Below, one piece after another: positions 25,114 through 57,257 of a stretch of DNA of 64,000 nucleotides (the stretch's first letter is position 1; every line of letters begins with the position of its first letter). Under the pieces are notes generated by a model. It searched no databases. It saw only the letters and a list, made by a program, of their open reading frames with translations, and was not told the origin of the DNA. Origin of the DNA: a bacterium (lineage in GTDB: Bacteria; UBA8248; JACPRG01; G963555815); NCBI GenBank assembly GCA_965218795.1, contig OZ244653.1:4640001-4704000 (forward strand). Reading direction: 5' to 3'. The position numbers were made by a program, and so were the translations under genes.

Positions 25114-25223
25114 CTAGGTCCACGTCCTTCATTGCCAAGTCCGAAGCAGATTCATGCCCACCTAACCGCACCTTCACACGCCTTTCGAATGCATTTGAGC
25201 ATCCCTCACTTCTGGCCGTGTAG

Positions 25224-32600: not shown

Positions 32601-32991
32601 TGACAGCAACCTGATTTATTGGACTGAGCGCGGTGAACTGGTGCGCTCCAAGTCTGAATGGATCATCGCCGACAAGATGCATGCCGCCGGCATCGACTAT
32701 CAATATGAACAAGCTTTGCTCCTGGCAGGCATTGAACGTTTCCCGGACTTCACCATCGTAGATGACGATAGTGGGAGCACCTGGTACTGGGAGCACAATG
32801 GCATGCTCAGCAACAAGGATTACCTCAAGCGTTGGGATCGCAAGCTGGCTGCCTACCGAGAGCAAGATATTCTGCGGTTAGAAGAAGGTGGCGGGAAGAA
32901 CGGCACCTTGCTGGTCACAGAAGAGCAAGCAGGCACCGGGCTCGACGCCGGGCACATACAAAGCAATATCGATGCGATTCTGGCGGGATAA
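29613..32991 (+). pseudogene. 3' part of RecD2-like SF1B helicase with C-terminal PD-(D/E)XK-like nuclease
   Basis: GSAGTGKS, LLAPTGKA, VIDECSM, VGDPKQLPP, AYALTIHKTQGSEF, YTALTR; C-terminal VRSKSE...PDFTI...YWEHNGM. Confidence 0.88.
30391..30432 (+). repeat. Exact 21-bp tandem duplication (PDSRRAL x2)
   Basis: CCGGACTCGCGCCGCGCGTTG twice. Confidence 0.95.
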
Positions 32992-38323: not shown

Positions 38324-38407
38324 CGGGTCCTCCCGTTCGAGGTTATGTGGATAGCGGCGGTCTTGGCGCCGTTGTGTTGCGATGCGCCGGGCGGGAGGCC
38401 GAGGAAG

Positions 38408-38470
38408 GCGGGGTCAAGGGCGCGGGACGCCGGGGCCGGAGAGGCTGGCGCCCGCGATGTCTTGAACCGC
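38408..38470. promoter_or_regulatory. Long imperfect hairpin in the traD divergent intergenic region
   Basis: GCGGGGTCAAG-GGCGCGGG-ACGCC...GGCG-CCCGCG-ATGT-CTTGAACCGC nested inverted repeats. Confidence 0.5.
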
Positions 38471-38489
38471 AACCCCGGAGGAACCACCC

Positions 38490-38858
38490 ATGTCCAATCC
38501 ACCCGACCCATCCAACGGCTGGCGCGCCCGGGCCTTCGTCCTCGGCGGGATCGCACTCGCCCTTGCCGTCACCGTCGTTTCCGTGGCCGCCGGGACCGGT
38601 GTCCGCTTCCTGGGGGGCATCTGGTTCTGGGCGGCGATCTGGACCGTTCTGGCCGGACTCACGTGCACCCTGTGGCGGGGGTTCCGCCATGGGGACTGGT
38701 CCGCCTTCGGCCGCTGCGGGCTCCCGGAAGAGGGCGGTGACCGGTTCGACTGGTCGACCCGGACCGGCCGCTATGCCTGGCTCCGCGATCTCGAGGATCC
38801 ACATCTCCACGACCACGATCCCCTTCGCGGTCATGGCCCCAGCACCTGGTCCCCGTAG
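38490..38858 (+). CDS. Small two-TM membrane protein, antisense to the tra operon
   Basis: GGAGG RBS; two hydrophobic helices and a charged C-terminus. Confidence 0.65.
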   Translation: MSNPPDPSNGWRARAFVLGGIALALAVTVVSVAAGTGVRFLGGIWFWAAIWTVLAGLTCTLWRGFRHGDWSAFGRCGLPEEGGDRFDWSTRTGRYAWLRDLEDPHLHDHDPLRGHGPSTWSP

Positions 38859-40770: not shown

Positions 40771-40792
40771 GGTCGCGTTCTCCCGATATTGT

Positions 40793-41840
40793 TTATCGGG
40801 CCCCTGCGCCGCCCCGTGAGAAGGCCAGCGCCGCCCTGAGTTCGGCCGAGAGCGCGCCCGCGAGCTCGGTCTCGATCAGCCTGAGCTTCTCCACCACGGC
40901 GAGGGCGGTGTTGAACCGCTCCAGCCCCTCATGACGGTGTCTGGCGAGGGCGGTCCGGTTCCGGCGCAGCCCCTCGCGCCAGCGCTCCAGCTGGTCGTGG
41001 TCGGCGATGTCGAGGGTGCCGGCGCGTTCCTCGATTGTCCTGTGCAGGTCCGAGATCCAGACCTGGAGCACGTCCAGGGCCACGGCCTCGGCCAGGGCGT
41101 CCACCTCCTGGTCCACCACCGCGCCGCGATAGGCGGCGGCGGTGTTGATGACCCGGTAGACCGGCAGGGTGGTGAGATTGACGAGCCCCAATGCGTCCGC
41201 CGGGGGCGCCGTGTCGGCGCGCACCGCCTCGACCAGCCGGCGGAGCAGGCCGGCGACCCGGTCCCGGAATCCCCGGGCCGCCGGCACGGTGAGCCGTCCG
41301 AGGACGGGGTTGAGGCAGTCCACGGAGGTGTCGCAGCGGTAGACCGGGAGGTCGCCTCCCCCCTCCATCAGGATCTCGGTCACCCGGCGGTCAAGGGCCA
41401 GGGGCTCCAGGATGCGTATCCTGGGGCCGGAATCGTCGCTGTCCGAGACCGGGGCGGTGACGATCGCGGTGCCCGAGATCGACATGGCGAACTCGCCGAG
41501 GTCGCGGTCGGACGCCAGGAAGCCCGACGCCCTCACCGCGCGCCAGGCGTAGTTGACGTTGACCGGGGCCTGGTCCTTGAGCGGTCCCGAGGCGGCGGCC
41601 AGGGTCGAGTGGCGCTTGCCGTCCGCGCCGCAGCCGTGGCGCGCGGCCGCGTAGTCGGAGAAGATCCCCTGTCTCGTGCCGATGGCCGCGCAGATCGCAG
41701 CGCTCGCCCGGTCGTTTTTGGACCAGACCGCCCCGACCAGGGCCTGGGCGGTCTCGCAGGAGTTGAGGTTCTGGCTGTTCACCCACTGGGCCAGGGCCCG
41801 GAGCTTGGACAGGGTCTCGGCGATCACGGGCGAGATGGTC
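40793..41840 (-). pseudogene. traH: TraH, 5' part deleted
   Basis: NSQNLNSCETAQALV, MSISGT, VYRCD, LPVYRVI; begins at a junction with traF. Confidence 0.85.
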
Positions 41841-42439
41841 CTCGGCGACCACGCCGAAGGAGACCGGCAGCGTCCGTCGGGTTCGCGTGTCGTAGAGGAC
41901 CACGGCGGGGAAGACTGGGGCCTTGAGGCCGAGCCGCTCGGCCCGGCCCTGGTCGGGGACCGCCTCGGGCCATCCCTCGAGGGGCTCGCCCGTCATCGAG
42001 ACCGCGAGCACGTCGAGTCCGTGACGGAGCGCGAAGGCGCGCAGAAGCGGACCGAACACCCGGCATCCCGGGCATTGCGCATGGCCGAGATAGATGAGGC
42101 CGTAACGCTCCCCGAGCCGGGCCAGGACGGCGTCGCGCTCGGCCCGGCGCTGCTCCGACCAGACCTGCTTGGCGAGCGCGCCCACCGGACGCTTCAGGGT
42201 GTAATCGAGATCGGGGCTCGCCCAGACCGTGCGGCGGAAGGCGTCCGAGAAGGAGGCGGCCCTTTGCAGGGCCTCCTGCTGGAGGCGCAGGTAGGCCGTG
42301 ACGTTCCCCTCGCTCGGGTCCAGGATGGCCCGGGCCCGGGCTTCCTCCAAGTCCCGGCGTATCTTCAAGACGCGTGCCATCGCGGTCCCGGGCGGCGAGG
42401 ACCCGGCAGGAGGCAGGCGAGGGCGTACGGGATGGTCAT
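41836..42439 (-). pseudogene. traF: TraF thioredoxin-like protein, deleted at both ends
   Basis: AILDPSEGNVTAYL, PDLDYTL-RP, CPGC, VFPAV, GVVAED; start MTIPY is out of frame with the body. Confidence 0.85.
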
Positions 42440-42450
42440 GGCCGCCTCCT

Positions 42451-43527
42451 TCACTTGCTCTTGGTGTAGAAGTCATGGATGCGCTCGCGCATCGCCGCGC
42501 CGGTTCGGCCGGCTTCCGGAAGCTCGATAGAGGGCTCATGCGACCCGTCGATCAGGTTCTCGGCGAACTCGGAGAGGTCCACGGCCTCGAAGTCGATGCG
42601 CTCCATCTCGTCGACCGTGAAGCCGCGGCAGCTGCCCCAGCCGATCCCGAGCTGGCCGCGCGTCGCTTCCTGCAGGATGCGCCCGAGCTTCGAGCCGAAC
42701 ACGCACCAGGAACGTTTCCAGCGGATGCACACGCCGAAGATCCGCTTCGCGCATCCACGGCCCAGGTAATGCGTGTTCCCGGCGTGGCGCTCCTCGGCCA
42801 GGAGGCGTTCCTCCCTGGTGCAGCCGGCCACGCCCACGAGCGCGCCCGAGTTCCTGCAGCAATCGGCGAGCCCGCCCCACTGGATCCGGCAGGACCGGCG
42901 ATCGCCTTGGAAGAACCGGAGGTTTTGGCGGTCGAATTCCTCGCCGCCCAGCTCGATGGCCATGTTGAGCCGGGCCGCCGAATCGACGAACCCGGTGTTT
43001 GCCCGGGACGGCGCGGTCCCGCAGTCGGCCCCCACGCACCAGGAGACCGAGCCGCAATGGCCGCCGGCCTCGGCGCGCTCGAGTCCCGCCTCGCAGTCCG
43101 TCACCGATCCGGAGGCGATCCCGTCCGCGCCCCAGAGAGGGGAATCGGCGTCGCCTTCGATCCCGTCCCCGCGCTGCGCGATCGGATCGTCCGCCTTGAC
43201 CGGCGCGTCCGGACGCGCGGCCGCGCCCTCGATCACGGAGCGTCCGGCTTGGCCTCCGGGATCGACTGGATCGGCCAGCACCTGGTTCGCGGCGTCCTCC
43301 AGATCGCCGGCGCCCAGGCCTCTCTCGGGCAGGTTCGTTCCAGCGTAGCCCGGCACATGAGCGGTTGAATCCGCATCCTTCGCGATGGCCCCTGCCGCGG
43401 CCTGTCCCGCTTGGCCGATCGCGCGGGCCGCCGCTGCCGGGTCTTCGGCCTTGGCGTTGCCGGTGGTCAGGTACGCCAGGACCGGTAGAGCCAAGACGAA
43501 GGCTTTCATTCCGTTTTTTCGGCTCAT
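42451..43527 (-). CDS. traN: TraN (short, 358 aa)
   Basis: Cys-rich C-terminus DCC...CTREE...HYLG...WCVFGSKLGRILQE...CRGFT...IDF; short length may reflect deletion. Confidence 0.85.
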   Translation of the reverse strand: MSRKNGMKAFVLALPVLAYLTTGNAKAEDPAAAARAIGQAGQAAAGAIAKDADSTAHVPGYAGTNLPERGLGAGDLEDAANQVLADPVDPGGQAGRSVIEGAAARPDAPVKADDPIAQRGDGIEGDADSPLWGADGIASGSVTDCEAGLERAEAGGHCGSVSWCVGADCGTAPSRANTGFVDSAARLNMAIELGGEEFDRQNLRFFQGDRRSCRIQWGGLADCCRNSGALVGVAGCTREERLLAEERHAGNTHYLGRGCAKRIFGVCIRWKRSWCVFGSKLGRILQEATRGQLGIGWGSCRGFTVDEMERIDFEAVDLSEFAENLIDGSHEPSIELPEAGRTGAAMRERIHDFYTKSK

Positions 43528-44237
43528 GGCCGGTCTCCTCTCAGGCTTGCGAGATGGCGGCGCGCCGCCGCTCGGCCCGGTCCGCCCTCGCCGGCGATGG
43601 CCTCGAGGGCCGCTTCCAGGCCGATGTTCCCCGCAATGCGGTCGTGGGGCGGCGCAGGATCCGTTGCGCAACCCCGGCTCTTGCAAGGCGGGGCCCCGCC
43701 AGGGACCACGGCCACGGCCGGGATCACCGTGATGCCGAAGAGCCGGAACAGACGCGGATCGATCGTGGCGTCGGACTTTCGGTCCAGGTACGGGCCGATG
43801 CGCTTCACCGTGGCTCGCAACCCGTCCGGGCCGATCCCGCGCAGCACCAGCGGCGCGCCGACCCGCGCGGCCTCGCGGCTCCACTGCCGCCAGCTCGCCG
43901 CGGGCGCCGAGAGGCTCATGAACACGATGACCTCGGGGCCATGGGGACGCGCGGATAGGCCGCGGGCAACGCGGCCGGCATGGCGCTCGGCCGGGAGCGG
44001 GCCGGAGGCCCCGGGGACGTTTTTCCCCGCGCGTTCCAGCGCGCGCTCGATCACCGAGCGCGACCAGGCGTCCAAGTCGTTCCCGCGGGCTTTCCTTGTC
44101 TTCTCCAGGACCCGTTCTGCCATATCGCGCGCCATGTCCCCGGCTGTTTCCTGGGCCCGGGCCGGGCCGCACCAGGCCGCCAGCGCGAGCGCGGAGGCGA
44201 GAGCCGGGATGGTCTTGCGAATCGGGTTATCGTTCAT
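43524..44237 (-). CDS. trbC: TrbC F-type pilus assembly protein
   Basis: IVFMSLS-P, LVLRG, IDPRLFRLFGITVIPA, DRIAGNI. Confidence 0.9.
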   Translation of the reverse strand: MNDNPIRKTIPALASALALAAWCGPARAQETAGDMARDMAERVLEKTRKARGNDLDAWSRSVIERALERAGKNVPGASGPLPAERHAGRVARGLSARPHGPEVIVFMSLSAPAASWRQWSREAARVGAPLVLRGIGPDGLRATVKRIGPYLDRKSDATIDPRLFRLFGITVIPAVAVVPGGAPPCKSRGCATDPAPPHDRIAGNIGLEAALEAIAGEGGPGRAAARRHLASLRGDRP

Positions 44238-44247
44238 GTCAGCCTCC

Positions 44248-45249
44248 TCAGAGCAGACAGCAGTTGCGCTTGCGCCAGAGCAGGTAGCCGAAGCTCTCGC
44301 CCGCCACGGGCAGCTCGCGCAGCGCTTCCCAGATCACCGAGGATCGGCCCGTGGGGTTGCAGCCCGTGAGGGGCGAGGTGGCCGGGACCGGCTGGGTCAT
44401 CTGCCAGCGGTACTGGGACTTCTTCATGATCGGCATGGGGTAGCGCCCGCAGAGCGCCGCCGTCCCCGAGGTCCCCCAGGCGAGCAGTAGCCGGTGAAGA
44501 CGGAACACGAGCCGCCCGGCCGCGAGGAGCGAGGCCTGGACCCCGCCCACGTGGGCGGCCACGTTGCCGGTCAAGGGATACATTCCCCCCTGGCAGCCCG
44601 CGCACCAGAACAGCGGATCCAGCGGCAGGCCCGCCGAGGCGGCGGCGCAATCGGCCGCGCAGGCCGCCTGGGCCGGCAGGTCCGCGAACAGCGCGGCTTC
44701 CGGGTTCAACAGGAAGGACAGCTCGTCGTCGAGCCAGGCGGGGTCGAGCTCGGAGACCCAGGCGATGTCGAGCCCCCCGCTTTCGAGGCAGCCGATGTCG
44801 AGCAGGGCCCCGATCCAGGAGAGAAGGGGATAGGCGTAGTCATGGACGTGCCACACGGAGCCCGAGGCGCCGTCGCCACCCGAGGATCCGGTGCGTCCGC
44901 GCCCTGCTGGCAGGCCCGGGTCTATGGTCATGCCCCCGAGGTTGGGGAAGCACCAGGGCGCGCGGCTGACGTCGATCAGCCGCGCCGGCTCCCACAAGCC
45001 CAGGGAGAGCCCGATCCGGGGGATCGGCTTGCCGCAGAGGCAGATCGGCGATCCCGGATTGGGCGTGTCCGGCGCGCCCGCAGCGCCGCCCATGCGGATC
45101 GGCCCGATCGAGATCGGCAAAAGGCACTCCCAGCACACGTCCGTGACGGGGTTCACGAAACGCCCGGTGCAGGACTGGGCGGATGCGGTCCCCGTGGACA
45201 GGACTCCGGCGAGGACCAGCGCCGCGCAGACGGTCTCCAGGGATCTCAT
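44248..45249 (-). CDS. traU: TraU
   Basis: GRFVNPVTDVCWECLLPISIG, WEPARL, SELDPAW, WCAGCQG, KSQYR, WRKRNCC. Confidence 0.95.
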   Translation of the reverse strand: MRSLETVCAALVLAGVLSTGTASAQSCTGRFVNPVTDVCWECLLPISIGPIRMGGAAGAPDTPNPGSPICLCGKPIPRIGLSLGLWEPARLIDVSRAPWCFPNLGGMTIDPGLPAGRGRTGSSGGDGASGSVWHVHDYAYPLLSWIGALLDIGCLESGGLDIAWVSELDPAWLDDELSFLLNPEAALFADLPAQAACAADCAAASAGLPLDPLFWCAGCQGGMYPLTGNVAAHVGGVQASLLAAGRLVFRLHRLLLAWGTSGTAALCGRYPMPIMKKSQYRWQMTQPVPATSPLTGCNPTGRSSVIWEALRELPVAGESFGYLLWRKRNCCLL

Positions 45250-45899
45250 GGATGGTCTCCGGCGGTCGCGGGATTGGCTTCGTCCCTGAGCGGCACTTCC
45301 GTGATCCGGAGCATGGATCCCACGACCTCGACCAGGGACGGGGTGGCGCGGAGCCCGAACCGTTTCGAGAGCCGGCCGTTCTGATCGAAGAAAAAGGGCC
45401 GTCCGTGGGCGCGCATCAGGTCCAGCGGCCGGCCCGCCAGGAGCACGATCCGCGCGGGCCGTTCGTGGCCGAGGGCCCAGGCCACCTCAACCGGCCGCGC
45501 GCCGTCGATGAACAGCAGGTCCCGGGTCAGCGGGTACACCTCGAGGGGGTTGATCCGAGCGCCCCGGGCCGCAATCAGGGTTCCGTCGTGCGCGAGGATG
45601 TCTTGCTCGACCGTGATGGAAGGATCGTGCAGCCGGGTGCGAGGGACGCGCGCGGGCCCGATGCCCTCGACGCGTCCGGGCGCCTCGATGCGCTCCCGGG
45701 CCCGGTCCAGGGCCTCGCGGCCCATGCGGGCCAGCTCGCCGGAGGCCTCCAGCGCTCCAAGCCGGGCCTCGATCCGGGCGAGCAGGTCGGGCTCGGCGAT
45801 CGGCCACACCGCGCCGCGCACGCCGAGGTCCTTTGCAGGAGCGGGCCGCGCCACAAGCATCAGCGCGCAGCCAAACGCGACCAGTAGGAAGCGGGTCAT
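45246..45899 (-). CDS. traW: TraW
   Basis: DLGVRG-VWPIAEPD, HDPSITV, INPL, FFDQNG-LSKRFG. Confidence 0.93.
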   Translation of the reverse strand: MTRFLLVAFGCALMLVARPAPAKDLGVRGAVWPIAEPDLLARIEARLGALEASGELARMGREALDRARERIEAPGRVEGIGPARVPRTRLHDPSITVEQDILAHDGTLIAARGARINPLEVYPLTRDLLFIDGARPVEVAWALGHERPARIVLLAGRPLDLMRAHGRPFFFDQNGRLSKRFGLRATPSLVEVVGSMLRITEVPLRDEANPATAGDHP

Positions 45900-46429
45900 G
45901 GCCGTGCCTCCTTAGGTCTTGCGAGCGGTCCCTTGAGCCCGAGCCAGGGAATGTCGGGCAGCGCCCAGGCCCGGCCCCGGATGCGTTCCCGCGGGACCAG
46001 CCCGATTTCCCGATAGCGGCTGTCGTGGCTGTCTATGTGATCGGCGTGGACGTAGTAGCGGCCCGGCGGGATCACGCCCGGTTGGGCCGCGTCCAGGACT
46101 CGGCCGTCCATTGCGTGGGTCTTGGCGATCCCGAGGACCGCGCCGTTCACCGAGACCCGGCACTCCCTGTCCACCTCCACCCGGTCTCCGGGCAAGCCGC
46201 GCACGGTCTTGAGGTAGGGGACCGTCGAGCCCACCGCCTCGGGCGGATCGAACAGGACCGCGTCGCCCCGTTCTGGCGCGCCGAGGAGGGGCAGCACGAG
46301 ATACCCCCAGGCCCCGTCGGACCAGCTGGCATTCACGTAGACGCGAGAGGCCGCAACGAGCCAAAGTGTGGCCAGCATGGCCGCCCAGAGCAGGAACTTG
46401 CGCCCCAATGCGTTCGCGTCCTTCCTCAT
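45896..46429 (-). CDS. Conjugative S26 signal peptidase (TrhF-like)
   Basis: NASWS, YLKTVRGLPGD, DSHDSRY; start MRKDAN overlaps the trbI stop. Confidence 0.88.
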   Translation of the reverse strand: MRKDANALGRKFLLWAAMLATLWLVAASRVYVNASWSDGAWGYLVLPLLGAPERGDAVLFDPPEAVGSTVPYLKTVRGLPGDRVEVDRECRVSVNGAVLGIAKTHAMDGRVLDAAQPGVIPPGRYYVHADHIDSHDSRYREIGLVPRERIRGRAWALPDIPWLGLKGPLARPKEARP

Positions 46430-46806
46430 GGTTCTTCCTCCGGATTCGTTGTCGGAAGGGTTCGCGGCGGGGCCGCCTGGATCGCCGCCTTTATCTCGGC
46501 GGTGAGGTCCGGCGCGCCGGCCGCGACCGCCCTTGCCGGCAGCAGCACCGCGCGGTGGCGCGCCGCCGTCCGGACGAGCGCGGCTTCCAGCCGATACGCC
46601 CAGCCGCGTACGGCTTTCACGGCCTCCTCTTGGTCGCCGTGCACCCGGGCGGCCTTTGCCATGTAGTCCGCCGTGAGCTCGGCCAGCCGCACGCTCGCGA
46701 TGCGCGGGACCCTCTCCAGGGCCATGCGCGCCGTGACGGCCGCGACCGCCGCGGCCACGCCCGCGGACAGCAGAAGCGCGGCGGTCAACGTTGTGGGCCC
46801 GCTCAT
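46426..46806 (-). CDS. trbI: TrbI
   Basis: TM anchor, VLLPARAVAAGAPDLT; position between traC and trhF. Confidence 0.8.
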   Translation of the reverse strand: MSGPTTLTAALLLSAGVAAAVAAVTARMALERVPRIASVRLAELTADYMAKAARVHGDQEEAVKAVRGWAYRLEAALVRTAARHRAVLLPARAVAAGAPDLTAEIKAAIQAAPPRTLPTTNPEEEP

Positions 46807-47555
46807 GACCCAGTCCGTTCCGGCGCCGTCTCTTCGTGCGTGACATGCGATTCCTCCGGTGGGGCTTGGTTGTTCTTTTTGGAGGACTCCTCCGGGATGG
46901 GTGCGATGGCGTCCCGTCCCGCACCCTTCGACCCCTTCAGGGCCCGCAAGCGTTCCAGCCAGAGCCTGGCCGCCCGGCCGGGCTCCACGGTTCGGATGCG
47001 GCGCTTGAGGGGCGGGAAGGCGACCGCGGAAGCCGCTCCGTCCCGCGCTCCCGGCAGGTCCCGGTCCTCCGCGGCCTCGGCCATGCGGGCCACGAAACGC
47101 AGCAGTTCCGCCTGCTCATGGGAGGGTTCCGCATCGAGCCCGGCCGACTCGCGCACGGCCCGGTCGACGATCCCGTTGAGCCGCTTCAGCCGCTCCGCCC
47201 CGCGCTGGGAGGAGGCGGCCTCGGGCCCCAGCCACGCAACGCTCGCGTCAACGAGAAGCGCATGGAGCGCCGCCTCCCGGCGGTCCCCGGATCCTTCAAA
47301 GGCCTCGATCTCCTCGCTCATCAGCACCCCGTGGGCCGCCAGCGAGTGGAACCGCCCGAGCCGGCCGCCCAGGCGGCAGGTGTTGGCCAGCACGTGAGCC
47401 AGGGCCTCGAAGTCCACGGCGTCTGGCGTCAGCCCCTCGGGATCCCCCGGCCAGGCAAGGGGCCGGTCCCCGGGTCCGGGCTCCTCCGCCCGGGCCGCGG
47501 TCCGTTTGGGGGATGTGGCGCTCAATGGGGCCCGCCTGTTCCTGTCCTTGCTCAT
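46803..47555 (-). CDS. YfbR-like HD-fold protein with degenerate HD motif
   Basis: ALAHVLANTCRLGG...HSLAAH...HALLVDA (usually LLHDA)...EDRDL. Confidence 0.7.
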   Translation of the reverse strand: MSKDRNRRAPLSATSPKRTAARAEEPGPGDRPLAWPGDPEGLTPDAVDFEALAHVLANTCRLGGRLGRFHSLAAHGVLMSEEIEAFEGSGDRREAALHALLVDASVAWLGPEAASSQRGAERLKRLNGIVDRAVRESAGLDAEPSHEQAELLRFVARMAEAAEDRDLPGARDGAASAVAFPPLKRRIRTVEPGRAARLWLERLRALKGSKGAGRDAIAPIPEESSKKNNQAPPEESHVTHEETAPERTGS

Positions 47556-47592
47556 GTGTGTCTCCTTCTCGTTCTTGAGGTATGAAGAACCG

Positions 47593-49872
47593 TCACGGCG
47601 CATCGTTCCCGGGGCCCGCTGCCTCCCCGGGCAGGCCGCTCTCCGCGATGCGGTCGATAGCCTGCTCGGTGGTGAGGCCTTCGTCCTTCAGTTTTTCGAC
47701 CGCGGCGAAGGCGGGTCCGCGCGAGGAGTAGAGGGCTACCGACCATGGGTCCAGGGCGAGGCGCGCCACGCGCCAGCCGTCCGGGCCGTGCAGCACCAGC
47801 TCGGCATGGCGCCCGTCCACGGTGGCCAGGCTCTTGAGGGCCCGCTCCATGCCCGGATCGCAGTGGATGCGCTTTTCCTGCTTGAGGAGCTCGACCGACT
47901 CGTCCTTCTGGGCCAGGAAGATCGTCCAGTCCGCGTTGTCCCAGGCGGCCCGGGCCGCGGGGTTGGCGTAGTAGTCGTTGACGCTCTGGGTGCCGGTGAC
48001 CAGCGCGCCCCGGTACTTGCGCGCCCGCCTGGCCGCGCCCTCGAGGAAGGCCCGGCTGTCCTCGCCCGACAGAAGGTCCCAGGCCTCGTCGATGACGATG
48101 GCCTTCGGTCGCGTGCGGGGGCCGTGATACATGCGCTGGGTGGCGAGGAAGACCACCAGCATGAGCACCACGCCCTGGACGTCGCCCCGGCCCTTGAGCT
48201 CGGCGAGCTCGAACACGGTGAGCGCGGCGTCCAGGGCCGGGGTCTCCGATCCCTCGAAGAGCCGCCCGAGGGCGCCGCCCGCGGCCGCCACGGTCCGAGG
48301 GCGAGAGCCATGTCCGATGCCCGCCGGTCGCCCGCTTCCTCCAGCCGGCGCTGCACGGTCCCGAGATCGGCGCCGTTGCCGGCCTCCTCCCAGGCGCGGG
48401 CGATGGCCTCGTCGATCAGCGCCGCCTCGATGTCGTCGATGCGCCCGCGCCTTCGGCACATCCGCCCGATCACGGCGGCCAGCATGGAAAAGCATTCCTC
48501 GCGGTAGTCCCCGTCCCGGGCCGCCACGTCCGCGTCGATCATGGCGAAGGGGTTGAGTCTCGCCGGGTCCTTGCCGAAGGCGATGAAGGCGCCGCCGAGG
48601 GCTTCGGCCGTGTGCTGGAAGGAACGCCCGTCATCGATCACCACGGCCTCGCCGCCCGAGCCCGCGATCCCCGAGACCAGCTCCTGCATCAGGACCGACT
48701 TGCCCGACCCGGACTTGCCGGTCACGGCCACGTTGTAGTTGCCGGCCTCGTTGGCGAAGGGGGACCAGCACGCGGGCTGGCCCCGCCTTCCGATCAGGAG
48801 CAGCGCCGGCGGCGCGTCCGGCGACGCCCCCTGGCCGCGCCACTCACCGTGCACCGGTGCGAGATTGACGGCCGAGGAGGTGAGCAGGGTCTTCATCCGG
48901 CCCATGCGGGCGAGATCGGCGTCGAGCCCGCCGGCCGGGACCATGGGCAAACAGGCGAGCCAGGCCGGCAGGTGGGCGTAACGCTCGGCGCCCAGGCGCC
49001 AGCCCTGGCCGTGATAGATGGCGCGCACCGCCTGCTCGGCCTCGTCGATGGCGTCCAGGGGCGCGTAGACCGCGATCATGTAGCAGGCCTTGACCAGCCG
49101 CTCGCCGTCCTTGAGCCGCTCGGTGACGAAGCGCCAGTCCTGGGCCTTCTCGGGCAGGCCCGGCAGGTAGCGCGCGATCCCCGTGCCCGCCTGCTGCGTG
49201 GCCCGGGCCGAGAGCACGCGCACCGCCACGTCCGTCCCGTCCGGGTGGTGGAAGACCAGGCCCGTGGGCGCGACGGTCAGGGCCCGGCCCGGGGCCGCGC
49301 ACTGAAGATGAATGGGGTCCCTGGGCGACCAGCGCCTCCGCCCCGGCCGAGGCGAGGGTGCCTTCCAAGGCCCGTCGGAACCCCCCGAGGGCGGTCTCGG
49401 CCGCCGGTCCGGCCGGGCCCGCCATACAGGCCGCCAGGAACACCCGGCAGTCGTTCAGCGTAAACGGCGGTCCGCCCGCATGAAGCGGGCGCCATCCGGC
49501 ATGGGCGAACAGGGTCCCGCGCCGTTTTGCCATCCCCGCCTGCACGCCGCCCGTCAGGCGCCGGGATTCGGCCCAGCTCTCGATCGCCGCCCCGTAGCGT
49601 GGGCTCGTCCAATGGATGATCTGCACCACCGCGCGCTCGGGCGCGGCGTCGGCGAGGGTGCCGGCCAGTGCGCCCAGCGTCTCCTCGTCGATCCCCACGA
49701 AGGGCGGCAGCTCCAGCAGGAAGCCGCAGCTCGCGGCGTTGATAAAGAGCTCGCTCCCCTCGTCCCAGGCCCGCCAGGGCAGGAGGCCGGCGAGGGGCGC
49801 CGGCAGGGCCGGAAGGGTCCAGGGCTGAAGCGCGTCCGGTCCCCTGAGCAGGTCCTTGAGGCGCTGGATCAC
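47593..49872 (-). pseudogene. traC: TraC (VirB4 ATPase), multiply deleted and frameshifted
   Basis: LLPWRAWD, NYNVAVTGKSGSGKS, IDDGRS, IDEAW, RRARKY-GALVTGTQ spread across three frames. Confidence 0.9.
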
Positions 49873-50530
49873 GGCAGCCTCCAGTGCGCCGGCTCCAGCA
49901 CCGTGCGAACCCAGTGGGCCTCGCGGTTGGGAACGCCGACCGCCAAGCGCCTCGCGCCGATGGCTCCAGCACCGTGCGAACCCAGTGGGCCTCGCGGTAG
50001 ACCCCGTCGGCGTCCACGAAGGGCGCGATCCAGATCCGCGCGATGCTCTCCTTCGTACGCAGGCGGTCATTGATCGCATCCTGGGTTCCTTCGCCCGGCG
50101 GAGCCGGCTTTGGTTCGGCGGGGGCCGCGGGGGTGGGATGTCCCGCGTCCGTGGACTCCTCTGTGGCGGTGTCGCGATCCCCTACGGTCCGGAACCACTT
50201 CGCGAGCCAGGCCAGGGGATCGCAGCCTCCGGCGCAGGGGGTGTCGTCACTCGGCTTTGTCGCCGGGGCGCCGGACCCTTGGGCATCGTCGGTCTTTGCC
50301 TGGTAGAGCGGCGTCCGGGTGGCGAGCCCTTGCGCCTTGCCGGGGGCCGCGACCGCCGGATCGGTCTCCGCGACGCTCGTGCAGGCCGCGCCCTGGGCCA
50401 GGGGGCACTGCCAGGAGTCGCCCACGTGGGTCGCCGCGCAGCCGCCCAGGACCAGGGCCGCCGCAAAGATCGCGGGGACCAACGTCCAGCCCTGTCCGGT
50501 TCGTGGATGAATCGTCGATTGCGTTCTCAT
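49869..50530 (-). pseudogene. traV: TraV lipoprotein, disrupted near its 3' end by a 71-bp duplication-plus-insert
   Basis: Lipobox LGGC, WQC...C, RIWIAPFVDADG; native end VLEPAHWRLP* follows the second repeat copy. Confidence 0.88.
49891..49998. repeat. 37-bp exact direct repeat flanking a unique 34-bp spacer
   Basis: GGCTCCAGCACCGTGCGAACCCAGTGGGCCTCGCGGT at 49891-49927 and 49962-49998; spacer TGGGAACGCCGACCGCCAAGCGCCTCGCGCCGAT at 49928-49961. Confidence 0.97.
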
Positions 50531-51609
50531 TTGCCTCCTCTCTTCTTGTCCTTGCGCCCGTCGAGCCAGGCGCCCTCGATGAACACCACGGTCACCCGCG
50601 TGCCCGTCTGGAGCTGGATCACCGGCTGGTACTGCTCGGCCCGGCGGATCAGGTAGTCGGCGACCCTGCGGCCGGCCGAGCCCGCGCCGGCGCCGATCCC
50701 GGCTTGGCCGAGCGCGGCTAGGCTCGATGCGTTCACGGCTCCGTCCGAGCCGGTTGTCCTGGCCGGGGCCTGAAGCAGGTTGGCGGCCGTTTCGCCCACG
50801 CCCGAGATGAGGCCCGCGAGGAACGCCTTCTCGACCAGGGCCCCCTCGCGGCTCACCACCGGACCCCGGATGCCCACCTTGCCGCTCCCGGCCACGAAGC
50901 CCGCGACCTGCGTCTCGGTCACGGTGCCCCGGGAAGGCCCGGCGCCGGTCAGCGTGGATCCCGCCACGTCCGCCTCGAGCGCTTCGCCGCCCTCGGCCGC
51001 GCTCCGGGCGGGGCCGGTCAGCCGCAGCAGCACCGGGCGCGGCTCGCCCTGGGAGGCGACGCCCTTACCCGCCGGATCCGCATCGCCTTCGAACACCTGG
51101 ATCATCGGTACGGCCGGTGCGGCATCCGAGGTCGCGGGGGCTCTCTTGCCGGGAGCGGGGTGGCTTGAACCCGCACGGGTAAAATCATCCGTGCCCGCCG
51201 GACCCGGCGCGGCCGCCCGGGCTTCGAGCCGGCCGCGCAGTTCCTCGATGGCCGCCTCCTGTTGGTCGATCACCGCCCGGCCGTCCTCGGCGCCGCGCGC
51301 GAGGCGCTCTCTGAGCTTGACGTTCTCCTGTTCGGCCCGCCGGCCCCGCGTCTCCATGTCCCGGAGCCGCGTCTCCAGTTCGCCGATCCGCGCCTCCGAG
51401 CGGCGCACCCAGCTCACCTCCGCCGTATCCGGTCCGGCCAGCTTCGCCTCGATCCCGGTCGGCGGCGGCCAGCCTCCGCCTCCGCCCGCCGAGATCCACA
51501 CCGCGAACACGATCAGCACTGCCGCGGCCACGCCCGAGAACAGCAGCACCTGCCGCTGGCGGGTGCGCCGGGCCTCCGGATCCATGGGGGTCTTGTCCGC
51601 GCCGCTCAT
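50527..51609 (-). pseudogene. traB: TraB (VirB10-like) with in-frame deletions
   Basis: PVLLRL, GKVGIRGPVVSREG, ADYLIRRAEQYQPVI; lacks the usual LPAGS and GDLSSE segments. Confidence 0.85.
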
Positions 51610-52400
51610 GGCGCCTCCTCCTCCTCCCCCGCCGGAACGGTCCGGAAGGCGTCATGCACGGCCACGGCGAGCCGTCCGCCCGAGGGGCCGGTCCCCGGCG
51701 CCGCCAGCCAGATCGCGGCCGCGCCCGGCGCGAGACGGCCCGCCAGGGCCTCGGCGCCGGTTCCCGGGCCGGGGCCCGCTTCCAGCACGCGCGCAATGAA
51801 CCGCGGCCCCCGCCAGACCTCGATGACTGAAAGACCTTCCTTGTAGAATGTTCCTGAAGGCGTCTCGATCGTGTAGCCCGGAAGGGTCTCACGCCGCGCC
51901 ACTGCGCGGACGAGCGCCACCAGCGTGCCCACGCGCCGATGGCCCGGCCTTTGGACGTCCGGTTCGGACATCGCGGCCGCATTGCGGATCAGGATCTGGG
52001 CCGAGCCGCGTTCGGCCACGGTCAACGCCAGCCGGTAGGTGAAGCCCGCGGCCGTCCCGATGAAGAGCGTCACCGGCTCCCGGGGAACGCCGTTGAGGCC
52101 CGCGGGCCGCAGGTAGATGTCGCCACGCGCCGCGTCGTGCTCGACCTGGAAACCGTCCGGCCCCCGGATCACCCGGGCGATCCGATCGCCCGCCAGCGCG
52201 ATGCGGCTCACCGCCCGGTCCGAGACCTCCGCTTCCAGCTCCGCGTGGTCCACGGCCTCCAGGATCTGCATGGCCGAGGCCGGCGTGCAGTAAAAGAACG
52301 CTCCCAAAAGCAACACCGGAATGAAAAAATACGTGAAGCCCGCCCCGGCACGCGCCGGGGCCCGGCCTTTTGCACCCCTGGTTCTCTTCCCTTGCTTCAT
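51606..52400 (-). CDS. traK: TraK
   Basis: SRIALAGDRI, GDIYLRP, TLFIGT-AGFTY; position between traE and traB. Confidence 0.85.
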   Translation of the reverse strand: MKQGKRTRGAKGRAPARAGAGFTYFFIPVLLLGAFFYCTPASAMQILEAVDHAELEAEVSDRAVSRIALAGDRIARVIRGPDGFQVEHDAARGDIYLRPAGLNGVPREPVTLFIGTAAGFTYRLALTVAERGSAQILIRNAAAMSEPDVQRPGHRRVGTLVALVRAVARRETLPGYTIETPSGTFYKEGLSVIEVWRGPRFIARVLEAGPGPGTGAEALAGRLAPGAAAIWLAAPGTGPSGGRLAVAVHDAFRTVPAGEEEEAP

Positions 52401-52402
52401 GC

Positions 52403-52972
52403 TCAGTCCTCCAGCTCTTCGAAACGCACCAGGCCGATCCGCCCCGCGTCCACGCGGAAGGCCAGCCGGTAGCGCTTGCGCTCGCGCGAGACCGGCTCGC
52501 GCCCGAGCCAGGTCGCGAGCTCTCCGGTCACCAGGACCGTCAACGCCTCCGGCTTTGCCTCGATGCGCTCGGGATAGAAAGCGGTCGCCAGGTCCCGCCG
52601 CGCCATGCGCCCGGCCTCGGCCGCGACCCAGGCCCCGATCGCGCCCCAGGCCCCGATCGCGCCCCGGGCCGAGGCGTGGCTCAGCCGCGTTGCCGCCTCC
52701 CGCACGTGCTCCGCGTTCTCCGGCGTCAGCGTCAGCAGCGTCACCGCCACGGTCCGTCCCATGTCTTCCAGATAGCGAAGCCCGGCCCGGCTGCTCCCGA
52801 CCTCCCAGGCAGGCCCCGTGACCGCCGGGATCAGCACCGCCATGCGATCCACCGAGGCCAGGCCGACGCTCAGGCCCAGATTGGCCAGGAGCGAGAGGCC
52901 CAGGAGCCCGGCCAGGGCCGCACGCCCGTCGCGCACCCGCCGCCGCTCCGCTTCCATGATGTCCCGTCTCAT
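52403..52972 (-). CDS. traE: TraE, with an 18-bp tandem duplication
   Basis: TM segment, VLIP, YLEDM, LTLTPEN, AFYP, GELATWLG, RFEE. Confidence 0.88.
   Translation of the reverse strand: MRRDIMEAERRRVRDGRAALAGLLGLSLLANLGLSVGLASVDRMAVLIPAVTGPAWEVGSSRAGLRYLEDMGRTVAVTLLTLTPENAEHVREAATRLSHASARGAIGAWGAIGAWVAAEAGRMARRDLATAFYPERIEAKPEALTVLVTGELATWLGREPVSRERKRYRLAFRVDAGRIGLVRFEELED
52628..52663. repeat. Exact 18-bp tandem duplication (GAIGAW x2)
   Basis: CCAGGCCCCGATCGCGCC twice. Confidence 0.95.
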
Positions 52973-52982
52973 CCAACTCTCC

Positions 52983-53229
52983 TCATCCGATGAACCGGCG
53001 CACGTGGCTCGGAGGCGCGCCCTTGAGGCCCAGGGTGAAGCCGGGCAGGAACCAGTAGAGCGCGCATATCGCCACATCCGCGCCGCCGCCCCGCTTGGCC
53101 CGGCGCAGCAAGGCCCAGGCCCCGAGCCCGGCCACCAGCCCGGTCACGAAGGCGTTGGCGGCCAGCCCCAGGACCGCGGGCCCCAGGAGCGCCGCCGCCT
53201 CGTCCAGGGTCCAGAACAGCCAGCGCGGC
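52983..53229 (-). pseudogene. traL: TraL, start deleted
   Basis: Manual translation PRWLFWTLDEAAALL...ALYWFLP...PPSHVRRFIG*. Confidence 0.88.
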
Positions 53230-53382
53230 CGCGAGCTGCCCGCCCGTGCCCGAGACGATGTCGGTCACCGTGCCGAGCGGACTCGAGAAGGTCGTGTCCG
53301 TCGAGGCCCAGGCCGCCTCCAGGCTACCCAGCGTCAACACGAGCGCCGGAAGCATCCGTTTCGTCGGAAAAAGCGTTCTCAT
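53219..53382 (-). pseudogene. traA: TraA pilin, 3' half deleted
   Basis: MRTLF...AAWASTDTTF...DIVSGTGGQLAAALA, propilin-like; fused out of frame to traL. Confidence 0.75.
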
Positions 53383-54107
53383 CGCGCCTCCCTCCTCCGT
53401 CCGTCCCCTCCGTCGTCCGAGGTCGAGACCCGCCGCCGCGCCGAGGCCCAGGTCTCCAGGTCGGCGAGCAGGTAGCGCACCCGGGCCCCGAACCGGTGGA
53501 ACACCGGTCCCTCGCCGCTCACCCGGTAGCGGTCCAGGGTCCTCGGCGAGAGGCCCAGCCATGCGGCCGCCTCCCGCGTGCTCATGTAATGCCTGCCGTT
53601 GTTGTCGCTCATGCACTTGTCTCCTTCTCGCTTGTGGGTGGATGAACCGGGCCGGAACGCCCCGGCAAGAGGGTTCTTGTCCGTCACCCCGGCGCGGATG
53701 GCCCGGGCCTCTTCCGCGCTCGCATGGGCCGCCATCCAGGCGCGCACCCGATCGACCGTGGTCAGCCGCGGCGACACTCCCCGGCGCAGCCTTCCCACGA
53801 AGGACGGATTGCCGGCGGCCTCCAGGCCCAATACCGAGAGCTTGGTCCCGGTCACGGCCAGGAATGCCTCGACCTCGCGCCGGAACACAGGACCCAGGGG
53901 CGGATCCCCCATGAAGACCAGCACCCGGTCCGCCGTGGCCAGCCGCAGCGAACGCCCCCGCATCTGGGAGGCCACGAAACCCGGGTCCCCGAGGGCTTCC
54001 ATGCCGAAGCGCCGGGCGCTCATGCCGTGGCGTGCGCGCCAGGCCGCAACGGTCCGGCGGAGGCGCTCGTCGAAAGGCATATCGGAGGGGGTGCCAGGCG
54101 TTGTCAT
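53379..54107 (-). CDS. Tandem Cro-like domains fused to an excisionase/AlpA-like HTH (internal ATG with RBS at 53612)
   Basis: Repeated unit (FG-EALGDPGFV...GRSLRL-TADRV; LG-EAAGNPSFV...GVSPRL-TVDRV), then STREAAAWLGLSPRTLDRYR...VRY. Confidence 0.75.
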   Translation of the reverse strand: MTTPGTPSDMPFDERLRRTVAAWRARHGMSARRFGMEALGDPGFVASQMRGRSLRLATADRVLVFMGDPPLGPVFRREVEAFLAVTGTKLSVLGLEAAGNPSFVGRLRRGVSPRLTTVDRVRAWMAAHASAEEARAIRAGVTDKNPLAGAFRPGSSTHKREGDKCMSDNNGRHYMSTREAAAWLGLSPRTLDRYRVSGEGPVFHRFGARVRYLLADLETWASARRRVSTSDDGGDGRRREAR

Positions 54108-54136
54108 GTGCATGAAAATAAAGGGGAGATTCGCGC

Positions 54137-54167
54137 TTGATAATAGGTATAAATAGTGTATAACCTG
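54137..54167 (+). promoter_or_regulatory. AT-rich divergent promoter/operator region
   Basis: TTGATA-N16-TATAAC; imperfect palindrome AGGTATA...TATAACCT. Confidence 0.5.
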
Positions 54168-54255
54168 CAGTTGGATTACATTCGTATGCACGTCCGCGGT
54201 GGAATGCGCGGGGGTGCGGCAAAAAACCGGGGAGACGGCAGGTGGAAGGGAAAGG

Positions 54256-54999
54256 ATGAACCTAGAGGGAAAGACGGACGAAAGGGAGGCGATCAGGCGC
54301 GACCCGGTCCGGCTCAGGCTGAGGGACCAGCTCCGGCGCAACGACCTCACTCTCGCCGCCGCGTCGCTGGCCATCGGTCGTAACAAGACCTATCTGCAGC
54401 AGTACGTGGACCGCGGGGTGCCCGCGGTCCTCGGCTATCGCGACAGCGAGGCCCTGGCCGACCTGCTCGGCTGCGGTCCCGGGCAGCTGCGACACGAGAC
54501 CGTGCCCAAACGCAGGCCCATGAAGCGCAGACGGCCCCGGCCGCCGGCCGGGCTTCCCGGCGCCCCGGTGGCGGCCATCCCGGAGATCGCGGTGGAGGCC
54601 GGGGCCGGGGCGGGAGCGCTTGCCGAGGAGTTCGTCTCCGAGACGGCGCGCTGGCACTGGCCGGAGAACATGCTCCGCTACGAGGGCGGCACGGCGCCCG
54701 AGAACGTGCGCATCCTCAGGGTGCGGGGCAACTCGATGCAGCCGGAGATGCGCGAGGGCGACCGGATCGTGGTGGACGTCTCGCGCCGTTTGCCGTCAAC
54801 GGGGGAGACGTTCGTGCTGTGGGACGGCAACGGGCTGGTGGTCAAGCAGGTCGAGGCGGTGCAAAGCCATGGGGCGGGCGAGGACAAACCGCCCCGGCTC
54901 AGGCTGATCTCCGCCAACCCGGACTACGCCCCCTACTCATGCCTCGCCCAGGACGTCCACGTCCTCGGCAAGGTGTTGTGGGTGGTAAGAAGGGTGTGA
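54256..54999 (+). CDS. CI/LexA-like repressor with S24 peptidase domain
   Basis: N-terminal HTH, AGAG cleavage-type site, VRGNSM (Ser) and VVK (Lys), LISANPDY. Confidence 0.9.
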   Translation: MNLEGKTDEREAIRRDPVRLRLRDQLRRNDLTLAAASLAIGRNKTYLQQYVDRGVPAVLGYRDSEALADLLGCGPGQLRHETVPKRRPMKRRRPRPPAGLPGAPVAAIPEIAVEAGAGAGALAEEFVSETARWHWPENMLRYEGGTAPENVRILRVRGNSMQPEMREGDRIVVDVSRRLPSTGETFVLWDGNGLVVKQVEAVQSHGAGEDKPPRLRLISANPDYAPYSCLAQDVHVLGKVLWVVRRV

Positions 55000-55188
55000 G
55001 CGCATGGGTCCGGGAATCAAGGGAGGCGTGGACCGGGACGGTCGAACCCTTGCACATGCTTCCGGGTGGTCATACGGATCGAACCCGTCACCGCCTTGAC
55101 CCGCATACAGGGAACCGGTCCATGATGGAAGCGCACTGGCGTTCCGATCCACGATCGCCTATATTTCTTCCAGAATGGAGGAAGCATA

Positions 55189-55812
55189 ATGGCGACGAGC
55201 ATTGTGTCCCAGACCCTGTCGGCGAACGAGGCGGCCTGTGTGACCGGCGTTCCCCTGAAACAGGTCCACCGCATCATCGACGCTGGCCTGTTGGGCAGCG
55301 CCGCCACAAACCACAAGGGCTCCCGTGTCGTCCTTCGCGACGGCTTGGTGGGCCTGAAGCTCGCCCACGAGACGACGGACACCCTCACCCTCGATGGACG
55401 CCGCCGGCTCGTGCGCTATCTCCTCGACAATCCGGAGGCCCGGGCGGCCCGTGAGAGCCACGTTTCCGTGGACGTACGGCTCATGAAGGGCGAAGTCCGG
55501 CGAGGGCTTTCCACGCTGGCAAGGGCGCGGAAGATGATCGCGGCCGACAAGGCCGTACTCTCCGGCGCCGCGTGCATTAAGGGAACCCGCATACCCGCTC
55601 ACGATATCGCCGAAATGCTCGCCAACGGCGACGGCGTTCACGCAATCCGCGACGCCTACCCGGCGCTCACTGGTGCACAGATCGAAGCCGCGGTCCTCTA
55701 TGCCCGGGCCTACCCGCGCCGTGGCCGTCCCCGTGGCGAGCCCTTCTGGCGCAACCGAAAGCCGGTCATCTCGAGCGAGGTCGCCTTCCACGAGCTGCCT
55801 CCGACCCGGTGA
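55189..55812 (+). CDS. DUF433-family antitoxin
   Basis: LSGAACIKGTRIP...YPALT-AQIEAA; GGAGG RBS; GTGA overlap with the toxin gene. Confidence 0.88.
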   Translation: MATSIVSQTLSANEAACVTGVPLKQVHRIIDAGLLGSAATNHKGSRVVLRDGLVGLKLAHETTDTLTLDGRRRLVRYLLDNPEARAARESHVSVDVRLMKGEVRRGLSTLARARKMIAADKAVLSGAACIKGTRIPAHDIAEMLANGDGVHAIRDAYPALTGAQIEAAVLYARAYPRRGRPRGEPFWRNRKPVISSEVAFHELPPTR

Positions 55813-56071
55813 AGTTTCTGATCGACGAATGTCTGAGCCCCACGCTCGCGACCATCGCCCGAAAACAAGGGTTCCCGCAATCGACGCACGTGAGCTGGCT
55901 CGGGTTGAGGTCCAGGAAGGACTGGCTCCTCGTCCGGCGCGCGATCCGGGACGGGTATGTGCTCGTGACGAACGACACGGCGGATTTTACGTCGCTGATG
56001 GAGCGGGAGCACCGCCATCCCGGTCTGGTCTGCATGAACGTGGCGCATGGCCTCATGAGCCTCGACGTGCA
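55809..56071 (+). pseudogene. DUF5615 PIN-like toxin truncated by IS3
   Basis: MKFLIDECLSP...KDW...LVTNDTADF...HPGLV, then the IS3 IRL. Confidence 0.85.
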
Positions 56072-57257
56072 TGGAGTTGCCCCGTTTTTGTGGACACCTT
56101 CAGACTGTGCGGAGGAGGTGTTCAGATGGCGAGAACTCATTCACCCTACGCGCCGGAATACCGGCGCCAGATGGTTGAGTTGGTTCGCTCGGGAGACCGG
56201 CTCGGTCCGGGCGAAGTCTTCGAACTCGTGAAGGCGAATCAGGCCTGCCATCGGGTGGCCACGATGTGCCGTCGGCTGGGTGTCTCCCCAGCGGATACTA
56301 CGCGTGGCGAAGCCGTGGGCGTTCGAATCGTGCGAAGCGCGACGAGGAGCTGCGCGGCACGATCCGGGCCATCCACGAGGGCTCTGGTGGCACCTATGGG
56401 GCGCCTCGGGTCCATGCCGAACTCGTGGCCAACGGGCGCCGGGTGAGCCGCAAACGGGTGGCTCGGCTGATGCGCGAGTCGGGCTTGGCCGGGGTGAGCC
56501 GGCGCCGAGGCACGGGTACTACGCGCGTGGACCCGAGCCATCGTGCGGTCCCGGACCGGGTCGAACGCCAGTTCCAGGCCGATGGGCCGGACCGAATCTG
56601 GGTGGCCGACATCACCTACGTGCCGACCTGGACGGGGTTCGTGTACCTGGCCATCGTGCTCGACGTGTTCAGCCGCCGGGTGGTGGGATGGTCCATGACC
56701 CACCATCTTCGCACCGAACTGGTGCTCGGGGTCCTGAACATGGCGTTGGGACAGCGCCGCCCCCAAGGGGTCGTACATCACTCCGACCAGGGCTCGCAGT
56801 ACACCTCGCTTGCCTTTGGGAAGCGGTGCCGGGAGATGGGGGTGGTTCCGTCGACCGGGTCGGCCGGGGATTGCTTCGACAACGCCATGGCCGAGAGCTT
56901 CTTCGCCACGCTGGAGTGCGAGCTCATCGACCGGCGCTCGTTCCGTACCCAGGCCGAAGCGCGCATGGCGATCTTCCAATTCATCGAAGGCTGGTACAAC
57001 CCACGCCGTCGTCATTCGGCCCTGGGTTACCTCAGCCCCAACGACTTCGAACGCGCCGTGGCGAAGGAAACGCCACGTGCAGTGCGCAACGCTCATCGTC
57101 CGGCTCGAACCGTCCCCGGTGCTTCCCGGAGCAGCGAGCCGGGGGTACCCTATCTACATCTACCGGATAGGGAGAAGACTTTACGTCCACCGGCTTTCGC
57201 CCACCGCAGGACTGGTGGCGACAGCCCAAACCCGTCCACTGAAACGGGGTAAATCCA
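56072..57257 (+). mobile_element. Defective IS3-family element (orfA deleted, orfB frameshifted near 56285)
   Basis: IRL TGGAGTTGCCCCGTTTTTGTGGAC; IRR reverse complement TGGATTTACCCCGTTTCAGTGGAC; WVADITY, HHSDQGSQY, DNAMAESFF; no TSD. Confidence 0.92.

Follow-up and report, generated by a model that had tools for sequence, protein, structure and literature searches.

A 71-bp insertion with a 37-bp target duplication in traV of a decaying integrative and conjugative element, a possible fossil of ectopic CRISPR spacer integration

The stretch of DNA analyzed here (the window) comprises 64,000 nucleotides of a bacterial genome of the UBA8248 lineage (GenBank assembly GCA_965218795.1, contig OZ244653.1, positions 4,640,001 to 4,704,000). 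It harbors, on the minus strand, the degraded backbone of an F-type integrative and conjugative element (ICE), in which the 3' end of the gene traV is interrupted by a short unique sequence lying between two exact copies of traV coding DNA. The feature is a derived state, an insertion of 71 bp that includes a duplication of 37 bp of the target. [quoted passage not shown] It may therefore represent the fossil of an ectopic spacer integration, carried out by a non-resident integrase that natively uses a repeat of 36-37 bp. The evidence for this origin is circumstantial and its chances are judged to be about even; that a Cas1-Cas2 complex made the insertion, which complex it was and when it acted are points that we infer.

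A repeat search of the window located an exact direct repeat of 37 nt in two copies that are 100% identical, with a start-to-start distance of 71. The first copy (R1, 49891-49927) and the second (R2, 49962-49998) enclose a unique insert of 34 bp (S, 49928-49961). Unlike bases adjoin the two copies (c/t before, t/a after), which gives a repeat of exactly 37 bp with a spacer of 34 bp, although a split into 36 and 35 bp is equally possible, given one chance match between the end of the spacer and the flank. Throughout the genome, a single contig (C1) of 5,174,045 bp, the 37-mer occurs only at the two traV sites and the 34-mer once. On the minus strand the repeat codes for the conserved C-terminal end of TraV. 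R1, which is traC-proximal on this strand, is in frame with the native TraV end and translates to REAHWVRTVLEPAHWRLP, followed by a stop codon that overlaps the GTG of traC (GTGA). The traV-upstream copy, R2, reads through the insert into another frame (...VLEPSARGAWRSAFPTARP...). Repeat search and translation thus confirmed the original prediction, made from the window alone, of an exact 37/34/37 duplication with the native traV end and its GTGA overlap to traC. The prediction had also drawn attention to two small palindromes within the repeat. These are present, but they carry no weight, since the repeat folds no better than shuffled sequences (z +0.55 and +0.44).

The ancestral state was deduced from ten aligned homologous traV/traC junctions, consisting of two paralogues from the same genome (near 536 kb and 2,666 kb), one copy from genome G004 and seven copies from another genus. 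In all ten the 37-mer is single, the 34-mer is missing and TraV ends in the same way, with the GTGA overlap. This indicates that the window carries a derived insertion, and removal of the 71 bp yields the ancestral traV, as had been proposed. Many further copies of the region exist in relatives. The complete copies of G004 all gave match pairs overlapping by 43 bp (6/6) and hence lack an insert, while three loci (L018, L020 and L021) were left out of the alignment, as the junction is missing there or the matches are short and partial. R1 and R2 have two substitutions in common that are not seen in the paralogues. Thus the duplication took place later than the divergence of this copy of the element.

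The junctions, for which support from reads had been asked, are present in Logan contigs from three runs of one study, one of which (X5) is possibly the source sample. In each, the 34-mer is accompanied by 30-37 nt of the repeat on either side with 0 differences. The contigs of X5 and X6 are 94 bp long (49898-49991) and that of X8 is 101 bp long (49891-49991). Under a bridging rule of 31 letters only the X8 piece formally spans the joint between R1 and S, the other sides having 30 letters; all three pieces reach 30 letters into R2, as unitigs built at k=31 should when they break off within a repeat of 37 bp. Run X7, which is labelled as another organism and has no cover over the 34-mer, and the region upstream of 50056 in X8, likewise without cover, were not counted as evidence.

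The 34-mer is foreign to the genome in which it resides. Its best ungapped match elsewhere in the genome amounts to 24/34 positions, compared with 23-25 for 20 shuffled sequences, and aligned locally to the flanking DNA (about 630 bp either side) it did no better than shuffles (41/300 reach the score). Neither slippage nor tandem duplication nor a template switch inside the genome as it now stands therefore accounts for it, and the origin of the 34-mer from adjacent DNA, which had been named as a finding that would speak against spacer acquisition, was looked for and not seen. No match of at least 16 nt to any repeat or insertion sequence (IS) of the genome was detected. A 15-mer match inside an IS630-like transposase gene with ten copies is one chance match multiplied by copy number. 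The 34-mer is absent from the traV regions of relatives at the ten aligned junctions, and from all 50 other genomes of the class that were searched at up to 3 mismatches. Neither the exact 34-mer nor its 24-mer core was found in contigs of species genomes or in viral contigs, and BLAST against phages and plasmids returned chance-level matches only (E >= 0.07). The 24-mer core matched one metagenome contig (L022) at 24/24 positions. This match is attributed to chance, because the flanks agree at only 1/5 and 3/5 positions (28/34 overall); it is located in an open reading frame of 257 aa that belongs to no family and lies amid housekeeping genes. Conversely, none of the spacers from the relatives' arrays and the host array, compared with the host genome, matches the ICE. 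With respect to its content of guanine and cytosine (GC), the 34-mer (73.5%) resembles the ICE (70.9%) and not the genome as a whole (60.5%).

Systems with fitting dimensions occur on ICEs of the same family. Cas1 is encoded in 13 of 41 genomes of the class, and in a sister family four genomes (G020, G029, G034 and G038) possess a high-scoring class of Cas1 adjoining arrays with 36-37-bp repeats. In G034 (C4:3457000-3496999, L045/L046) the CRISPR-Cas cargo directly follows the conjugation genes in the order traD, traI, 1.4 kb, Cas_GSU0053, Cas_GSU0054, cas3 (with a C-terminal HD domain), cas4, cas1 and an array of 37-bp repeats and 35-37-bp spacers. This locus is contiguous with homologues of traV and traC, located 13-28 kb away in the gene order of the window, and the TraD and TraI proteins share 70-79% identity with those of the window. 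From its Pfam content the system looks like type I-U/I-G. In G020 (C1:3296000-3335999, L047/L048) the cargo consists of cas3, a DevR-type cas7, a Cas4/Cas1 fusion and an array, and has a P4-type integrase on one side and, 5.6 kb further on, a TraI homologue on the other. The G020 system, whose cas3 has an N-terminal HD domain, may be another subtype with a Cas4/Cas1 fusion. Its array combines a 36-bp repeat with spacers of 34 bp (7), 35 bp (11), 36 bp (10), 37 bp (2) and 38 bp (1), so that the commonest unit measures 71 bp (11/31). In G045, whose repeat is of the same family, a spacing of 71 is likewise the commonest (17 of 43, counted by hand). Hence the ICE family of the window carries class 1 CRISPR-Cas cargo with Cas4/Cas1 in relatives, and the lengths of the insertion fit systems that the element could have met, i.e. 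those of G034 (37; 35-37) and G020 (36; 34-38). In size, the insertion thus disagrees with the resident system and agrees, to the base, with CRISPR modules carried along by ICEs of this family.

The host genome itself contains two solitary units that match the repeat of G020 much better than expected by chance (catalogued as L060 and L055). The unit at C1:3789422-3789457 is identical at 30/36 positions and the unit at C1:166334-166369 at 22/23 positions of the 3' part, which comprises the hairpin plus handle; the chance maximum for a match to this repeat is 24-25. In Rfam, CRISPR-DR33 was matched over 37 nt with 22.2 bits (E 0.041), which is below the gathering score. The relics take the form of a hairpin with a GNRA loop followed by a GAGCAC tail, close to the 36-bp repeat of G020 and G045. 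Both are intergenic, and the neighbors of the unit at 3789422 are ordinary metabolic genes. Similar lone units are present in G004 (L054), G047 (L058), G048 (L059) and G020 (C1:512838) in differing, unrelated intergenic contexts. Lone units of this kind may be decayed arrays, decoys or regulators. The relics show that the host lineage has met this repeat family, but not that its enzyme ever acted in this genome.

Ectopic spacer integration would account for the layout as follows. A Cas1-Cas2 integrase loaded with a prespacer of 34-35 bp would attack both strands at the 3' end of traV, at sites 36-37 bp apart, and gap repair would duplicate the stretch between the cuts, leaving the order repeat-spacer-repeat. 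The integrase would be an adaptation module of the Cas4/Cas1 type with a native repeat of 36-37 bp and spacers of 34-38 bp, distinct from the resident type I-E enzyme and of the kind borne by ICEs of the same family in related genomes. It could have been active when the element resided in a previous host, or in a strain ancestor that later lost the module. For the Cas1-Cas2 of Pyrococcus furiosus, one study reports that off-target full-site integration occurred at paired sites 30-31 bp apart for a repeat of 30 bp (PMC6698737). Because such off-target events, as studied in vitro, occur at the spacing of the native repeat, the duplication of 36-37 bp points to a system with 36-37-bp repeats.

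Several observations weigh against this reading. In the host family only Cas1 of the I-E type was found, in 2 of the 7 genomes searched (the host, G000, and G004). The host genome encodes no Cas4, no Cas_GSU0053 and no second Cas1, and tblastn of the G020 and G034 cas proteins against it gave no match. The closest repeat family has a 36-bp repeat, which agrees with the observed 37 bp only if one base matches by chance. Furthermore, the 37-mer is identical to the repeats of four relatives at only 6-15 of 36-37 positions, which is in the chance range, and no leader-like flank was seen by eye at the target. A protospacer was not found in the genome, class genomes, species genomes, phages, plasmids or viral contigs, so that there is no protospacer-adjacent motif to be read and no mobile element to name as its origin. 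The event is also single, as a genome-wide scan revealed no second isolated repeat-spacer-repeat of the traV kind. Finally, this copy of the element is full of scars of illegitimate recombination, so that an odd repair product is not far-fetched. Routes by non-CRISPR repair, transposition or template switching, taken jointly, are given a probability that falls somewhat short of even.

The first of these routes is an insertion without any CRISPR enzyme. A staggered double-strand break, or an aberrant transposition or integration, might have captured a 34-bp filler followed by fill-in; as a variant, a mobile element that duplicates an unusually long stretch of target might have left the feature as its footprint, having been lost but for 34 bp. 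The state of the ICE copy speaks for such an event. Comparison of window positions 37700-56100 with the paralogues at C1:521800-542600 and C1:2661300-2680400 revealed 18 window-specific gap runs of at least 15 bp, which are read as deletions and correspond to about 16 events. Only two insertions are specific to the window, namely the 71-bp insertion and a plain tandem duplication of 18 bp near 52627. Two deletions (101 bp near 49337 and 156 bp near 49208) and an insertion of 2 bp near 48282 set traC apart from the intact paralogue, and both deletions, the two that were inspected for this, are flanked by microhomologies (6 and 9 bp). The lack of a matching integrase in the genome today is also in line with a non-CRISPR insertion. 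However, the host genome contains no Ku gene, which makes classical end joining unlikely. The 34-mer lacks inverted termini as well as any match to repeats or IS of the genome above the length threshold given above, and the 1705-bp IS of the window, the only one whose ends were inspected, shows no long target duplication. The size match to the ICE-linked CRISPR unit would also have to be a coincidence. We know of no bacterial process that gives a 37-bp duplication together with a 34-bp insert. On balance an insertion of this kind is considered unlikely, without being far-fetched.

Template switching during replication, similar to microhomology-mediated break-induced replication, would produce the same layout if the repeat was copied, replication jumped for 34 nt to a lost co-resident replicon or ICE variant and then returned to the start of the repeat, which was copied again. 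The ICE-like GC content of the 34-mer is compatible with such a template. On the other hand, no template was detected in the genome, in the paralogous ICE copies or in the 50 class relatives, and reading of the sequence disclosed no microhomology at either joint. Template switching is therefore regarded as improbable.

Ectopic integration could also have been due to the resident Cas1-Cas2. The single Cas1 of the host genome belongs to a complete type I-E locus (cas3, cse1, cse2, cas7, cas5, cas6e, cas1 and cas2), and as the sole Cas1-Cas2 of the genome, in a system that looks complete and has an array of 27 repeats, it is a candidate for an aberrant off-target integration. The array, the only one in the genome, consists of 29-bp repeats and 32-bp spacers with a start-to-start distance of 61 in every adjacent pair listed; an IS630-like element lies between cas2 and the array. 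Both the 37 bp of the duplication and the 34 bp of the insert miss these values. In type I-E systems two molecular rulers anchored in the repeat keep its length to 28 bp, give or take about 1 bp, and single-base changes move the size of a new repeat by one base at most (PMC5039180). Thus an integrase of this type does not make a duplication of 37 bp around an insert of 34 bp, and aberrant action of the resident enzyme is very improbable. The original prediction had suggested comparing the unit length of the host system with 71 bp and had named an incompatible length as evidence against its own proposal. With a unit of 61 bp this is what was found for the resident system, and the proposed ectopic acquisition survives only with a non-resident module of the Cas4/Cas1 type and 36-37-bp repeats. 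An artefact of assembly or sequencing, for which nothing speaks beyond the general possibility, is scarcely credible, given that the 34-mer, with repeat sequence on both sides and no differences, recurs in independently built contigs of three runs, and that the element is otherwise damaged by large deletions and not by homopolymer errors.

Integration of spacers outside arrays is known from other systems. Nivala, Shipman and Church reportedly described off-target spacer integration giving rise to 'neo-CRISPR' loci in 2018, with the type I-E system of Escherichia coli and over-produced Cas1-Cas2. Judged by the accounts in citing papers (PMC7054753, PMC11788318, bioRxiv 10.1101/148544), the traV feature resembles such loci in having a spacer-sized insert at a non-array site, a flanking target duplication and the form of a one-spacer proto-array. 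It differs in being natural and in ICE coding DNA, in sizes that do not fit type I-E and in the absence of the presumed integrase. According to one of these sources, natural evidence for off-target integration is scarce and circumstantial and stems from two other species (bioRxiv 10.1101/148544). The Cas1-Cas2 of P. furiosus offers a further parallel in vitro, since it attacked opposite strands at the native repeat distance in non-CRISPR sites, which were only about 43% like the repeat (PMC6698737). In that case the spacing was 30 bp and the target a plasmid in vitro, whereas the traV duplication measures 36-37 bp, arose in vivo and lies at a site whose likeness to a repeat is not above chance. 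For a type I-U (now I-G) module with a Cas4/Cas1 fusion, a predominant spacer length of 36 bp in E. coli is given by Almendros et al. 2019 (PMC6547450). The ICE-linked systems of the relatives share with such modules a Cas4 that is fused to or located beside Cas1 as well as long spacers; off-target integration is not described in the text available from that source.

Two other kinds of structure have to be distinguished. Direct repeats of target DNA also flank transposons and their footprints, as they flank the insert in traV. The target duplications of most bacterial IS are 2-14 bp long. In contrast to a transposon, the traV insert is only 34 bp long, has no inverted ends and matches no IS of the genome. 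Mini-arrays and solitary repeat units consist of a repeat-spacer-repeat or a lone repeat outside a cas locus and are found on or near mobile DNA. In these the repeat resembles a real CRISPR repeat, whereas the 'repeat' in traV is coding sequence; it is the two solitary repeat-like units of the host genome that are of this kind.

The traV feature could document the natural birth of a one-spacer proto-CRISPR array from coding DNA, in which an ICE-borne Cas4/Cas1-Cas2 mis-integrated into traV of an ICE of its own family; put in this specific form, the proposal is tentative and falls somewhat below an even chance. Off-target spacer integration has been proposed as a route by which new CRISPR arrays are born. 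If the proposal is correct, the feature is a new natural member of the known class of off-target integration exemplified by the E. coli and P. furiosus enzymes. In that event, sibling or rival elements would now and then be scarred, and perhaps disabled, by adaptation modules borne on ICEs, and the solitary units of this repeat family in genomes without the array would be traces of the same conflict. The case combines a clean product, an ancestral state known from many paralogues, the exclusion of the resident system by size and a plausible agent linked to the family of the element that was struck. It provides a concrete and testable pair of site and enzyme, and directs attention to the CRISPR-Cas cargo of this ICE family and to lone repeat units. 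If it was not made by CRISPR, an unexplained insertion with a 37-bp target duplication is also worth knowing.

The scan of the genome for related structures considered exact pairs within 150 bp with a repeat of at least 24 bp and a spacer of at least 15 bp. Besides the traV pair, all of the 117 pairs belonged to the CRISPR array, to tandem or protein repeats, or to five isolated pairs, which on inspection proved to be tandem, REP-like (repetitive extragenic palindromic) or complex duplications of local DNA. In 300 kb of the relatives' loci no repeat-spacer-repeat outside an array was observed. One exact duplication of 66 bp in the host (C1:1113811-1114001) has the layout R-x-y-R-y, its copies lying 59 bp apart. 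The end of the spacer recurs in the 11 bases that follow the second copy. It is a complex local duplication and not foreign DNA; by eye, it sits in a gene with a thiolase-like N-terminus. Another region (C1:4128553-4129332) consists of about 12 tandem copies of a 63-bp unit in GC-rich DNA and is not CRISPR.

The ICE backbone (33447-56100, minus strand) includes traI, traD, traN, traU, traC, traV, traB, traK and traE. Pfam analysis of the minus strand gave the F-type order traE, traK, traB (TrbI-like), traV and traC, followed further on by traU and traN. The relaxase gene traI (33447-36386) and traD (about 36641-38353) are located on the same strand. The open frame of traV (49277-50530, minus strand) possesses a lipobox (LVLGGC) and was assigned to TraV (PF09676) with 23.9 bits at a cut-off of 21; its neighbors belong to TraE, TraK_N, TrbI-like and TraC_F_IV (PF11130). 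BLAST against plasmids gave matches of up to 70% to alphaproteobacterial plasmids, and the annotated relatives are described as 'TraV family lipoprotein'. Because of the insert the frame of traV is shifted after ...VLEP, affecting the last six codons, and runs to 417 aa; the native stop would lie at 49869-49871. The gene traC (47593-49872, minus strand) is split into three frame pieces (48844-49872, 47736-49229 and 47593-48495). It is intact in the first paralogue and also truncated in the second.

With respect to the claim that the insertion had inactivated a conjugation gene, the frameshift in traV stood up to analysis. As the sole damage it did not, since the copy has undergone the 18 deletion runs mentioned above and traC is broken three times. 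The ICE copy is dead regardless of the insertion, which may but need not have been what disabled it. Several ICE copies are decaying in this genome, mostly by deletions of 15-600 bp, and further partial copies are located near 2,220, 2,875 and 2,922 kb.

The host I-E locus (C1:194246-216757) is itself bracketed by ICE remnants, namely N-terminal fragments of TraI (194246-194623 and 213778-214194) and a TraD (214469-216228), and the I-E system may be former ICE cargo. Spacer 22 of its array shows a partial self-match, with 24/25 bases identical to the host chromosome at C1:3205566-3205590. In another genome of the set (G033, L035/L042) a Cas1 of the I-E type lies by an array in which 29-bp repeats and spacers no longer than about 36 bp form units of 61 or 65 bp, which is unusual for type I-E.

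Defence-like cargo is located by the ICE of the window (17675-23349 and 29350-32991) and comprises an SNF2 helicase with a Swt1-like HEPN domain, a sacsin-domain protein and a RecD-like helicase of 1213 aa. The segment at 18946-21143 is 99.96% identical to C1:1635210-1637407. Two identical copies of the 1705-bp IS, which encodes a DDE_Tnp_1_4 transposase, lie at 23412-25116 and 27911-29615 and are the only two in the genome. They flank an SPFH/Band-7 gene in the cargo after traI and likely form a composite transposon with it.

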